Assembly (NCBI GenBank): GCA_023666945.1
Contig: JAMPAY010000003.1
Location: 59,200 to 123,199, forward strand
Source: Paludibacter sp.
GTDB lineage: Bacteria; Bacteroidota; Bacteroidia; Bacteroidales; Paludibacteraceae
Length of the DNA: 64,000 bases
Direction: 5' to 3'
This document shows positions 4,644 through 38,359 of this stretch, in pieces. The notes beneath the pieces are model-generated. The model saw nothing but the letters and a program-made list of their open reading frames with translations, had not been told where the DNA came from and ran no database searches. The position numbers and the translations under genes are program-made. Position 1 is the first letter of the stretch; each line of letters starts with the position of its first letter.

Positions 4644-4689
4644 ATAACCACACAATTAGTCATTTAACTTAATTGGCTGCAAATTTACA

Positions 4690-4879: not shown

Positions 4880-4950
4880 GCATTACGAGACCGTAACGAG
4901 ACCTTAACGAGATCATAACGAGACCGTGTCGAGATATCATTCTGTCAAAA
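4880..4950. repeat. Intergenic iteron repeat element, copy A. Tandem 11-bp units TACGAGACCG / TAACGAGACCT / TAACGAGATCA / TAACGAGACCG / TGTCGAGATATCA followed by TTCTGTCAAAA.
   Basis: Direct reading. The same element in reverse orientation sits at 15351-15426, and a degenerate copy at 38050-38130. Confidence 0.7.
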
Positions 4951-5062
4951 CCGCTTGCTCGTTCTCATTCGCCTGACACGTCCTCCATCTAAGTAGACCT
5001 CGTTTTTGATATAGTTACACTAAAAAAGCAACACCACATTGGCTCAAACGGATATTTTTCCG

Positions 5063-5070
5063 TACCTTTG
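5063..5070 (+). promoter_or_regulatory. -7 promoter box TACCTTTG for pepO-NlpC/P60 operon
   Basis: TAnnTTTG consensus, ~57 nt upstream of ATG 5127. Confidence 0.45.
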
Positions 5071-5126
5071 CAAGTCAATACGTTATTACTATAACGATAT
5101 TAATTGTATAATTACACATAAACACA

Positions 5127-11865: not shown

Positions 11866-12055
11866 CAATTATTATTTCAATCCCACAAATAGCATTACAG
11901 ATTTATTTCCGTAATATTTCCGTTTGCCAATTCCGCCCGTCAAGTTATTCGTAATTTTGCAAAGCAGATGTTACAAAACAGAGAAAGTTACGTGTTTTTA
12001 TGCTAAAAAGCATATTTTTCTACACATAACTATTGCGTATATGAAAAAAGTGCCG

Positions 12056-12063
12056 TACTTTTG
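12056..12063 (+). promoter_or_regulatory. -7 promoter box TACTTTTG for lipoprotein-rSAM operon
   Basis: TAnnTTTG consensus, ~125 nt upstream of ATG 12189. Confidence 0.4.
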
Positions 12064-12108
12064 CACCGTGTTTTTCATGGTATTAGATTTAAGGTTAAGT
12101 AAAGATTG

Positions 12109-12138
12109 GGTTGTCGGGATGACAACCTTTCTTTTTTT
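12109..12138 (+). terminator. Intrinsic-terminator-like hairpin inside the 5' leader (GGTTGTC-GGGAT-GACAACC followed by TTTCTTTTTTTAT)
   Basis: Perfect 7-bp GC-containing stem plus 11-nt T tract. Lies between the candidate promoter and the start codon. No upstream plus-strand gene to terminate, so it is a possible attenuator or leader sRNA. Confidence 0.45.
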
Positions 12139-12188
12139 ATATACATGTCTTAACAGACACATATAGTATACACACAATCTATATCAAT

Positions 12189-15185: not shown

Positions 15186-15350
15186 GAAAAGATCTATTTA
15201 TTATCTTATGAAAGGTAGCATAGTTTGTATAAAACCATGCTACCTTTTATATTTACTGCTCACCATGAGCGACATTTAGCAATGTACGGCTCTCTACAAA
15301 AAAGATGAAAACACTATTGAGATTTCCATTCTATTTGCTCAAGCAACCGA

Positions 15351-15426
15351 TTTTGTCAGAATGAAAGGTCGACGAGATCTCGTTACGGTCTCGTTACGGT
15401 CTCGTAATGATCTCGTACACCTGATT
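15351..15426. repeat. Intergenic iteron repeat element, copy B (reverse orientation relative to copy A). Contains the palindrome ACGAGATCTCGT and tandem CGGTCTCGTTA units.
   Basis: Reverse complement aligns with 4880-4950 across the iteron array and the flanking TCATTCTGNCAAAA. Confidence 0.7.
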
Positions 15427-15641: not shown

Positions 15642-15649
15642 TACCTTTG
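15642..15649 (+). promoter_or_regulatory. -7 promoter box TACCTTTG for fur/perR-rubrerythrin operon
   Basis: 43 nt upstream of ATG 15692. Confidence 0.45.
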
Positions 15650-15691
15650 CCAAGGAATTAGAATGATTCTAAAGTTTAGAATGATTACTAT

Positions 15692-22965: not shown

Positions 22966-23020
22966 CCTTAATTGAGAATTATTCTATTTGCACAATTGCA
23001 AAACTTGCATTACCTTTGCA

Positions 23021-25203: not shown

Positions 25204-25248
25204 ACTAAAGAAAAAATGCAAAACATTTGCAAGTATCAAAAACTTGTT

Positions 25249-25256
25249 GTACTTTT
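25249..25256 (+). promoter_or_regulatory. -7 box TACTTTTG upstream of tRNA-Met
   Basis: Consensus match ~120 nt upstream of the tRNA. Confidence 0.3.
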
Positions 25257-25378
25257 GCACCCGCTTTGAAAATATTTTCAGAGTATAATTCCACAGAACT
25301 CGTTTCTTTGGAATCAGAGGAGGAATCGAAAGGTAAGAGAATACTGAAAAAGTAGAATTGCCCAACAGATTCCGACAA

Positions 25379-32602: not shown

Positions 32603-32734
32603 ATACACATATATTTCCGCCTTCATCGGTGATTATTGGCAAGTCACGATATTCGGAATACCCAATTACCCTATTATTCCCTATCTTGAAAGTGTTTCTA
32701 TGATATGCAATACTTTCCCATTGAAAAAAAAGTA

Positions 32735-32742
32735 TTACTTTT
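32735..32742 (+). promoter_or_regulatory. -7 promoter box TACTTTTG for sufB
   Basis: 65 nt upstream of ATG 32807. Confidence 0.4.
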
Positions 32743-32806
32743 GCATTTGGAAAAGAAGCAATATCACCAACATACTTGGTAGTATACACATATCCGATAT
32801 ACAACT

Positions 32807-34488: not shown

Positions 34489-34528
34489 CTTTTTTACTTC
34501 AAAGACTTGCACAGTTCGAAGAAAAGCC

Positions 34529-34536
34529 GTACCTTT
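34529..34536 (+). promoter_or_regulatory. -7 promoter box TACCTTTG for tRNA-fMet
   Basis: 27 nt upstream of tRNA 5' end. Confidence 0.45.
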
Positions 34537-34562
34537 GCAGCCGATTTCAACAAGAAATAACA

Positions 34563-37883: not shown

Positions 37884-37929
37884 CAACGCTGTTGCGCAAC
37901 GCTGTTGCGCAACAGCGTTCTTTTTTTTA
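37884..37929 (+). terminator. Strong rho-independent terminator (palindrome AACGCTGTT-GCGC-AACAGCGTT with duplicated left arm, then T8)
   Basis: Direct reading. CAACGCTGTTGCGC occurs twice in tandem before the right arm. Confidence 0.8.
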
Positions 37930-38049
37930 CATAATGCCTCACACATTCCGTAGCACCCCAACAGATAGCGAACATATACCGAGAGCACAAACACAACACA
38001 TAACGACAAAACGACTACGCCCGCGCTGAAGAATCGGAACAAACAACCA

Positions 38050-38130
38050 ATTATGATAAAACGAAAGTTCGACGAGACCTCGTTGATATCCCGTCGAAAT
38101 CCCGTAACCCTCTCGTACAAAAAACACCTG
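38050..38130. repeat. Intergenic iteron repeat element, copy C (degenerate; same orientation as copy B)
   Basis: AAAGTTCGACGAGACCTCGTT...CTCGTACAAAAAACACCTG aligns with copy B (AAAGGTCGACGAGATCTCGTT...CTCGTACACCTG). ACGRGAN units recur about every 11-12 bp. Confidence 0.6.
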
Positions 38131-38297
38131 CAAATAAACACCCCTATCAGCAACTAATTCCCTTAAAACAAGAAAAGTGTCGCAAATCTACACAATATAC
38201 TATGATTTAGATATTTACAACATAAATACCAACGGAGGAATACGGTATATTCAAAAAAATACACTATTTTTCAGTATTATGTATTGCATAGTATTAT

Positions 38298-38305
38298 AAA
38301 TTATA
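38298..38305 (+). promoter_or_regulatory. -7 promoter box TACCTTTG for ABC efflux operon
   Basis: 55 nt upstream of the preferred start 38360. Confidence 0.45.
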
Positions 38306-38359
38306 CTACCTTTGCCAACGAAAATAACACAAGACATTTATACAGAACCGATACGCTAC

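Follow-up and report, generated by a model that had tools for sequence, protein, structure and literature searches.

The stretch of DNA considered here, hereafter the window, comprises 64,000 nucleotides of contig JAMPAY010000003.1 (positions 59,200 to 123,199, forward strand) from a Paludibacter sp. assembly (GCA_023666945.1). Three long intergenic spacers of the window, of 451-506 bp each, host copies (A, B and C) of a short non-coding element of ~77-90 bp, which consists of an array of 11-bp iterons followed by a non-repetitive tail of 25-35 bp. The genes flanking the copies encode a TPR protein and an M13 peptidase (copy A), a DUF2147 protein and PerR (copy B), and SecDF and a MacB-type ABC transporter (copy C). 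The three copies are homologous as units, the tail included, and this homology goes beyond the mere likeness of their arrays. The element is regarded, with moderate confidence, as a new, species-restricted, non-coding dispersed repeat resembling MITEs (miniature inverted-repeat transposable elements) and BrickBuilt; a protein probably recognises its five ACGAGA sites, which are set in helical phase.

Architecture of the three copies

Copies A, B and C follow one plan, namely four ACGAGA-N5 units (degenerate in copy C), a fifth degenerate unit and the tail, with a period of exactly 11 bp. The hexamer of the fifth unit is TCGAGA in copy A, TCGACC in copy B and TCGAAC in copy C. No unit has been gained or lost, as exactly 4+1 units without indels are found in all three diverged copies. 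Both orientations are represented, and all three copies are intergenic. Tandem Repeats Finder reported period-11 arrays with 0% indels at copies A and B. The pattern ACGAGA-N5-ACGAGA, with up to two mismatches, was observed 15 times against 3.45 expected, a number reached in none of 100 shuffles, and 13 of the 15 matches lie inside the three copies. On the tail side of copies B and C two hexamers are inverted (ATGAAAggtcgACGAGA and ACGAAAgttcgACGAGA), which gives rise to a palindrome at the junction. The palindrome is perfect in copy B; its site reads ACGAGGTCTCGT in copy C, and copy A, where no palindrome is found, has lost it.

By BLAST, copies A and B align over 76 nt with 80% identity (E=5e-15), and copies B and C over 45 nt, comprising the tail and the last units, again with 80% identity (E=2e-6). 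The tail of copy B alone matches copy A with E=4e-4, while the A-C pair taken alone is weak (65.5% identity, E=0.6). Outside the core of ~77-90 bp, local alignment and 7-mer diagonals detected no homology among the three copies. These results bear out the original prediction, made from the sequence alone, that three intergenic regions share a repeat family with helically phased 11-bp iterons; all the features that it named, the perfect palindrome of copy B among them, are present at their positions.

In the alignment of the three copies, 5 of the 30 hexamer columns are variable, compared with 18 of the 25 spacer columns and 9 of the 22 tail columns, and the difference between hexamers and spacers is significant (Fisher p=4e-5). 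A conserved hexamer and a free spacer, recurring once per helical turn, are the signature of a site bound cooperatively by a DNA-binding protein, and to that extent the term iteron is justified. The earlier suggestion of a site for a multimeric DNA-binding protein fits the same pattern. The coordinates are collected in Table 1.

Table 1. Positions of the element, of neighbouring features in the window and of related arrays in fetched loci (L numbers)
Feature	Position	Strand	Sequence or content
Copy A, whole	4883-4970	+	array and tail
Copy A, iteron array	4883-4937	+	five head-to-tail 11-bp units: TTACGAGACCG, TAACGAGACCT, TAACGAGATCA, TAACGAGACCG, TGTCGAGATAT
Copy A, hexamers 1-4	4885-4890, 4896-4901, 4907-4912, 4918-4923	+	ACGAGA
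Copy A, hexamer 5	4929-4934	+	TCGAGA
Copy A, array/tail junction stretch	4937-4950	+	TCATTCTGTCAAAA
Copy A, tail	4938-4970	+	CATTCTGTCAAAACCGCTTGCTCGTTCTCATTC; non-repetitive, common to A, B and C
Copy B, whole	15340-15419	-	array and tail
Copy B, iteron array	15367-15419	-	units TGTACGAGATCA, TTACGAGACCG, TAACGAGACCG, TAACGAGATCT, CGTCGACCTTT (followed in copy B by CATTCTGACAAAATCGGTTGCTTG)
Copy B, hexamers 1-4	15411-15416, 15400-15405, 15389-15394, 15378-15383		TCTCGT on the plus strand
Copy B, hexamer 5	15367-15372		GGTCGA on the plus strand, degenerate
Copy B, perfect palindrome	15372-15383		ACGAGATCTCGT; junction of array and fifth unit
Copy B, post-array stretch	15351-15364	-	TCATTCTGACAAAA
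Copy B, tail	15340-15366	-	CTTTCATTCTGACAAAATCGGTTGCTTG
Copy C, whole, degenerate	38031-38118	-	array and tail
Copy C, iteron array, degenerate	38067-38118	-	hexamers ACGAGA, ACGGGA, ACGGGA, ACGAGG, TCGAAC
Copy C, hexamers	38111-38116, 38100-38105, 38089-38094, 38078-38083, 38067-38072		TCTCGT, TCCCGT, TCCCGT, CCTCGT, GTTCGA on the plus strand
Copy C, tail, degenerate	38031-38066	-	CTTTCGTTTTATCATAATTGGTTGTTTGTTCCGATTC
Spacer of copy A			divergent: TPR protein gene (1015 aa, minus strand, ATG 4643) / M13 peptidase gene pepO (5127)
Spacer of copy B			DUF2147 gene (ends 15185, terminator hairpin) / Fur-family PerR gene, then rubrerythrin
Spacer of copy C			SecDF (ends 37860, terminator) / MacB-type ABC efflux operon
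-7 box faced by copy A	4680-4687	-	TAAATTTG
-7 box faced by copy B	15642-15649		TACCTTTG
-7 box faced by copy C	38307-38314		TACCTTTG
pepO -7 box	5063-5070		
Per/Fur-box-like palindrome 1, perR promoter	15658-15672		TTAGAATGATTCTAA
Per/Fur-box-like palindrome 2, perR promoter	15676-15689		TTTAGAATGATTAC
D1 sites	5040-5072, 12033-12065, 22988-23020, 25227-25259, 32713-32745, 34507-34539, 38284-38316		TTGC-N19-GTACCTTTGCA
AATCACC-family arrays	L022 9789-9843, 3343-3377; L024 1-21; L098-L101 1-20; L004 4811-4887		
Intragenic arrays, murB	L009 5285-5330; L053		
Intragenic arrays, ABC-F ATPase	L012 6101-6149; L065; L080		
Soil family, Ga0105239	L034, L035, L038, L047, L051, L056, L082, L090, L094		
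Soil family, Ga0307513	L037, L058, L087		

Relatives and the wider class of 11-bp arrays

In a second strain of the same species (Logan assembly of SRR18716857), copy A is found at the same site with the same 4+1 units and one single-nucleotide polymorphism; the comparison of unit numbers among strains comprises this one other strain. The assembly ends within the array (starts of L095 and L096), as is expected of a multi-copy repeat. A relative whose PerR shares 69% amino acid identity is syntenic over the radical-SAM, S66 peptidase, DUF2147, PerR and rubrerythrin genes, and its DUF2147-perR spacer measures only 126 bp. This spacer contains a terminator, a TAcCTTTG box and Per boxes, with neither the element nor any tandem repeat. 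The absence of copy B from the syntenic spacer indicates a lineage-specific addition and not a part of the ancestral perR control region, in a relative that is too diverged for the boundaries of the insertion to be seen. 

The tail is confined to this species. When all 106 loci were searched with a hidden Markov model of just the tail, the matches were confined to the same species, and a 22-base pattern of the invariant array-end and tail positions yielded 0 matches in the JGI metagenomes and IMG/VR; the element family is absent from the collections scanned. Neither the species of the window nor the tail turned up in the GTDB genomes when these were scanned for three units.

At two of the loci, arrays of a different kind are met in related species. 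The spacers upstream of pepO in relatives cannot be aligned outside the promoter. In an 82% relative (L022) five units of a different 11-bp repeat (AATCACCCACT) lie 160 bp upstream of pepO, and in an 89% relative (L024) the contig upstream of pepO opens within an array of the same AATCACC family, oppositely oriented; a long spacer is lacking there in two other relatives. For a 76% relative, four independent assemblies begin upstream of the ABC operon, each inside a GGTGATT (=AATCACC) array, and the flank CAGCATACCTTGNGCATA is common to these four assemblies and L024. The shared flank and the array at both genes imply that the sister species has its own dispersed family of the array-plus-flank kind. 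This second 11-bp family of sister Paludibacteraceae (AATCACC[C/T]A[C/A]T) is always bounded by GCTG, and in L004 both unit types occur within one 240-bp composite of four arrays. Among relatives, arrays break the contigs of five independent Logan assemblies (L024, L098-L101), and they do so in the second strain as well (L095/L096); 11-bp arrays are a practical cause of fragmentation of short-read metagenome-assembled genomes (MAGs) of Paludibacteraceae.

A broader class of arrays was reached with the pattern ACGAGAY-NN-TW repeated three times, which was found at 20 loci in GTDB genomes, 14 of them in MAGs of rumen/gut Paludibacteraceae/Bacteroidales, and at 68 metagenome loci. The flanks of these arrays differ between genomes, and leaders and tails are common to copies within a genome; for example, L019 and L020 share the leader AAAAAGACGGCA and the tail GCCGTTCT. 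In soil and rhizosphere Bacteroidota a dispersed element of ~250 bp comprises a leader (TTTTTAGTATATTACATTAGGTTAGCG), 8-12 units of N5-ACGAGA and a tail (...AAAGGCTATTTAATGCGGTTC). Its array often ends in ACCTGA units, its hexamer is much better conserved than its spacer, and its host contig carries type IX secretion system and hybrid two-component genes. Many arrays of the wider class start 10-30 bp past a stop codon. Moreover, ACGAGAC arrays lie within the murB and ABC-F ATPase genes of other rumen Bacteroidales, in frame (...RDT(Y/N)ETLTRQ...), where they are kept between orthologues at 97-99% identity.

The constraint on core and spacer was compared in units outside the searched match, at spacer positions equally constrained by the pattern. 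The mismatch was 0.197 in the core vs 0.344 in the spacer overall (p=2e-12) and 0.152 vs 0.288 in the soil family (p=1e-5). In the rumen set (n=38) it was 0.307 vs 0.307, which is not significant, and owing to this null result no core constraint is claimed for the rumen arrays.

Among the other arrays in these loci the commonest period is again 11, with many unrelated units (AATCACCCACT, TTACTTGGTGA, TATCCCTAAAG, TACCGAGTGAT and CGTGCGGACAG in relatives). This variety of units, the four adjacent arrays that fill the 240-bp spacer of L004 and the lack of a core-spacer difference in the rumen arrays would suit a neutral minisatellite, that is, a slippage-prone 11-bp repeat that underwent three old duplications and has no binding partner. 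Such an origin appears improbable, because the 4+1 units are fixed in three diverged copies without indels, because hexamer and spacer are asymmetric both in the window family and in the soil family, and because the conserved non-repetitive tail shows dispersal as a unit.

Two further observations were made in the fetched loci. Many intergenic 7-bp tandem arrays, with units including AAGTACA, CTTTGTA, TGATTGC, CAATTAC and ATTTATG, occur in the same rumen MAG loci (L001, L005, L007, L009, L011, L017, L018 and L019) and are reminiscent of the heptamers of cyanobacterial STRR. In addition, a ACGAGACCGTA array whose unit is identical to that of the window stands at 5360-5421 of L006, from a MAG labelled Methanomicrobium sp. 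(JAFPWZ010000101.1); this contig also bears many short tandem repeats typical of Bacteroidales loci and may be mis-binned.

The recurrence of different arrays at the same loci may reflect insertion hot spots or selected arrays. On a wider view, considered doubtful here, the window element would be the local form of Bacteroidota-wide 11-bp iteron arrays that are kept by a trans-acting protein and whose positions (pepO, MacB-type efflux) persist while the units are replaced between sister species. In this regard, the units at the same positions are ACGAGACCGTA in the window and AATCACCTAAT in relatives, and both are found in the L004 composite. If this were true, it would imply a targeted insertion system for array-bearing elements or the co-evolution of arrays and their binding protein, and hence a level of genome architecture or regulation not described before in Bacteroidota.

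Promoters and transcription near the copies

Each array faces a Bacteroidota -7 box (TAnnTTTG) at a distance of 188-223 bp. From the ends of the element as first delimited, the next plus-strand box is reached after 113 bp (copy A to pepO), 216 bp (copy B to perR) and 177 bp (copy C to the ABC operon), so that the 130-250 bp of the original prediction was roughly right; the pepO box lies 93 bp from the end of the copy A tail. The specific tie to promoters of plus-strand operons that the original prediction suggested is not supported, and nothing found shows the element to be a promoter control site. Since only three long spacers were available, finding a copy in each is hardly informative, and the orientation towards the downstream gene is not uniform unless copy A is assigned to the TPR gene. 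A distance of 188-223 bp is far for a classical activator. Furthermore, no isolated ACGAGA-N5-ACGAGA site was found at other promoters within the window, and in other MAGs arrays of the related ACGAGAC kind directly adjoin stop codons or fall within the murB or ABC-F gene.

The same findings bear on the possibility that the arrays are a regulatory or architectural platform of the host. A host protein, for which a winged-helix response regulator of the OmpR/PhoB type, a ribbon-helix-helix protein or a nucleoid protein would be candidates, would bind cooperatively to the phased hexamers that lie upstream of the TPR/pepO, perR-rbr and ABC-efflux promoters, and the repeat would have been copied because it carries the site. 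ArcA sites are known to be built of hexamer-N5 direct repeats with 11-bp spacing, three to five in succession (PMC3798270). The conservation of the hexamers and the freedom of the spacers agree with such a role. With copy A assigned to the TPR gene, all copies show the order tail, iterons, 188-223 bp, TAnnTTTG box and gene; however, the chance probability of a uniform orientation is ~0.5. The copies share a tail of 25-35 bp besides the motif, which independent binding sites would not, the perR promoter of the relative works from a 126-bp spacer without an array, and no evident physiology unites the three operons. A role as a promoter-distal regulator is therefore possible but less likely, given the shared tail, the absence at the syntenic perR, the distance from the promoters and the lack of isolated sites. 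It is kept under consideration on account of the different 11-bp arrays recurring at the pepO and ABC genes of sister species, which hint at selection for an array there and would favour a host function. On balance, a host platform is judged rather unlikely.

Transcription of the repeat itself, as a small RNA gene or a cis-acting RNA element, was also considered. BrickBuilt is transcribed and has promoter activity (PMC4596501), and on the minus strand of copy C a TAGATTTG box lies 5' of the array, ~70 nt away. Nevertheless, Rfam gave no match at the elements, either at the gathering threshold or at E<=1, and its matches in the window are one FopS small RNA and two tRNAs only. The fold z-scores range from +1.35 to -1.87 on both strands with structures that differ from copy to copy, the variable spacers show no compensatory pattern, and copies A and B have no conserved in-register TAnnTTTG box. 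An RNA function is accordingly very unlikely.

Several features of the surrounding sequence deserve mention in their own right. By eye, the stretch TGAC-N-TTGCT of the tail was dismissed as a sigma-54 promoter, since it lacks the GG and does not have the right spacing. The perR promoter consists of a TAcCTTTG -7 box followed by two Per/Fur-box-like palindromes (window 15642-15689), a layout repeated in the relative (L097 2622-2660), and the PerR-rubrerythrin operon looks like an autoregulated one. A 33-nt "repeat family" named D1 corresponds to the Bacteroidota -33/-7 promoter consensus and likely marks seven transcription starts. The FopS-family Bacteroidota small RNA (12068-12141, plus strand; RF04319, 79.8 bits, E=4e-10) lies directly 3' of a TTG...TAcTTTTG promoter (12033-12065), with a small carboxypeptidase-regulatory-like gene downstream. 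Finally, the stretch 37884-37925, 3' of SecDF, contains a 13-bp tandem repeat (CAACGCTGTTGCG x2.3) which is also a GC-rich hairpin followed by T8, and is probably an intrinsic terminator.

Origin of the element and comparison with known systems

The reading of the element as a MITE-like repeat starts from its being short and non-coding and occurring in three homologous copies of ~77-90 bp. According to this reading, the element spreads, or once spread, as a unit into intergenic DNA. The hexamers would be retained through cooperative recognition by a protein oligomer, most likely a transposase or recombinase that mobilises the element, and they may be multiplied end-sites of a transposase. Effects on the pepO/TPR, perR-rubrerythrin and ABC-efflux promoters would be incidental and due to the bound protein or to the added spacer DNA. 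The original prediction had admitted a small MITE/REP-like element only as an alternative. This alternative is now favoured by the shared tail, by the absence of copy B in the relative and by the confinement of the tail to the species, whereas terminal inverted repeats and target-site duplications were not found. The findings that the original prediction had set down as speaking against it were copies placed at random, also inside genes, with target-site duplications, or an iteron spacing that is not conserved. Arrays inside genes do occur elsewhere, but no target-site duplications were found and the 11-bp spacing is strictly conserved.

A possible link with a mobile element is provided by the iteron sequence. 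The core, CGAGACC(N)T(T/A), is similar to the bases at the outer end of the inverted repeats of Bacteroidales IS5-family elements (ISPg1, GAGACCATTGCA; BrickBuilt, GAGACCTTTGCA), and its GAGACC is the same as the tip of the ISPg1/BrickBuilt inverted repeats. Read from its G, the iteron is GAGACCGTAAC or GAGACCTTAAC, with 8-9 of 11 positions identical to the tips of IS5-family inverted repeats, and GACCTTTCA in copy B is a run of nine bases identical to the consensus of the BrickBuilt 3' inverted repeat. Within the element this motif occurs as the iteron itself and as GACCTTTCA in copy B, and not as a terminal pair.

A number of points weigh against a MITE-like origin. The resemblance to the IS5 tips is suggestive, and once rotations, strands and published variants are allowed for it is not significant (p~0.1 by the author's estimate, and ~0.01 for the 9-mer of copy B). 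A search of all fetched loci for IS5-type inverted-repeat pairs (GAGACY-N-TT-K-C) gave three isolated single matches and no pairs. The outer ends of copies A, B and C (TACGAGA... and ...GGTTGCTTG) are not inverted repeats, and the sole inverted feature is the internal hexamer at the array/tail junction of copies B and C, which is missing in copy A. No direct repeat flanks the core of any copy; the TA that stands before every array is too short to count as a duplication. Membership among MITEs is consequently not established. No transposase was found near the copies in 82 kb of contig (the window and 18 kb of additional flanking sequence), and in the same 82 kb a profile of the three copies revealed no fourth, so that the census of three copies is limited to this length. 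All-vs-all BLASTP of 742 open reading frames beside 88 arrays disclosed no recurrent protein family, only duplicates of orthologous loci. The unit number, fixed at 4+1, is not the behaviour of a dynamic minisatellite, and the different array family found upstream of the same pepO and ABC-efflux genes in relatives likewise counts against a MITE-like origin. Copies A and B were also examined as the ends of a 10.4-kb transposon or invertible segment; this was rejected, since the genes between them (pepO, PEPCK, FopS and others) are housekeeping ones and copy C would be left as a solo end.

For the present, the element is an unnamed, species-restricted repeat of an uncultured rumen or gut Paludibacter, which is useful for annotation and breaks short-read assemblies; it also provides an instance of elements of the BrickBuilt type, made of an array plus a flank, outside Porphyromonas. 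A literature search on the unit sequences and on tandem repeats in Paludibacteraceae/Bacteroidales returned nothing. Arrays of 11-bp period with a short conserved core are common across Bacteroidota, also inside genes, and at two loci sister species have them in the same place, built of another unit. The cis-regulatory DNA of Bacteroidota is poorly mapped, and if the arrays have a protein partner, whether an IS5-like transposase or a host regulator, they would open a practicable way into the biology of mobile elements or into regulation at a distance from promoters. Locally, this is repeat biology of an ordinary kind; the arrays found throughout the phylum and their positional persistence are the part worth following.

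Several known systems share traits with the element. REP/BIME, ERIC and the cyanobacterial STRR are, like it, lineage-specific intergenic repeats, and STRR are short tandem arrays between genes, as are the 7-bp and 11-bp arrays of the MAGs studied. REP and ERIC are palindromes that function as hairpins of RNA or DNA, and STRR have 7-bp units and no shared tail.

Tandem 11-bp direct repeats that are bound cooperatively by one protein are also known from plasmid iteron, centromere and rolling-circle replication arrays. The parC centromere of plasmid R1, for example, comprises two sets of five 11-bp iterons. Such repeats likewise form the RepB "bind" locus of rolling-circle plasmids of the pMV158 type, with four of them in pGL2 (PMC3387028). 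The element could on these grounds be what remains of a plasmid or phage site for replication or partition, such as an iteron origin, a centromere-like array or a bind locus. This origin is scarcely credible, as the three copies are chromosomal and dispersed, with housekeeping genes at their flanks and no rep, par, integrase or phage genes nearby, and no match was found in 72,556 plasmids and 50,697 phages (blastn in "distant" mode vs PLSDB and INPHARED) or in IMG/VR.

Binding sites of the OmpR/PhoB type are closer in geometry. ArcA sites comprise 3-5 direct repeats, predominantly 11 bp centre-to-centre, and multiple repeats are found also at OmpR- and PhoB-regulated promoters (PMC3798270). 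The window element has in common with them the direct repeats on one helix face, the conserved core and the variable spacer; at least two direct repeats at 10-11 bp are typical of this class, and the window copies have 4-5 hexamers at exactly 11 bp. Unlike these sites, which adjoin or overlap promoters and share the motif only, the window copies share the tail too, the -7 boxes are 188-223 bp away from their arrays, and simple sites forming a regulon are not observed.

With MITEs the element has in common its small size, its lack of coding capacity, its AT-rich surroundings, its occurrence in both orientations and between genes, its restriction to one species and its absence from the syntenic site of a relative. 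It differs from them in that neither terminal inverted repeats nor target-site duplications, by which they are defined, were found and a partner transposase was not identified in the 82 kb.

The nearest counterpart is BrickBuilt. The original prediction knew of no such named element in Bacteroidota, but BrickBuilt, an intergenic Bacteroidales element of Porphyromonas gingivalis, is a named element (Klein et al. 2015) and consists of a leader, a tandem array without spacers and a tail (PMC4596501). Its unit of 23 nt, which has conserved and variable positions, is repeated 1-23 times per array; the element is 84-991 nt long, its leader and tail segments being long, and is present in 19 copies (PMC4596501). 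Its 12-bp terminal inverted repeats, GAGACCTTTGCA / TGCAAAGGTCTC (also given as GAGACCTTTGCA/TGAAAGGTCTC), match those of the IS5-family elements ISPg1/ISPg9 (GAGACCATTGCA), and some copies have target-site duplications (PMC4596501). The window element differs in its 11-bp unit and its fixed 4+1 arrangement, and it shows no outer inverted repeats or duplications and no conserved leader beyond the CAGGTG of copies B and C; overall sequence homology with BrickBuilt is not established. In common with BrickBuilt, it is an intergenic, multi-copy element of Bacteroidales whose tandem array is joined to a conserved unique flank and whose unit combines variable and conserved positions, and the inverted-repeat tip of BrickBuilt, GAGACC(T)TT, resembles the iteron core of the window.

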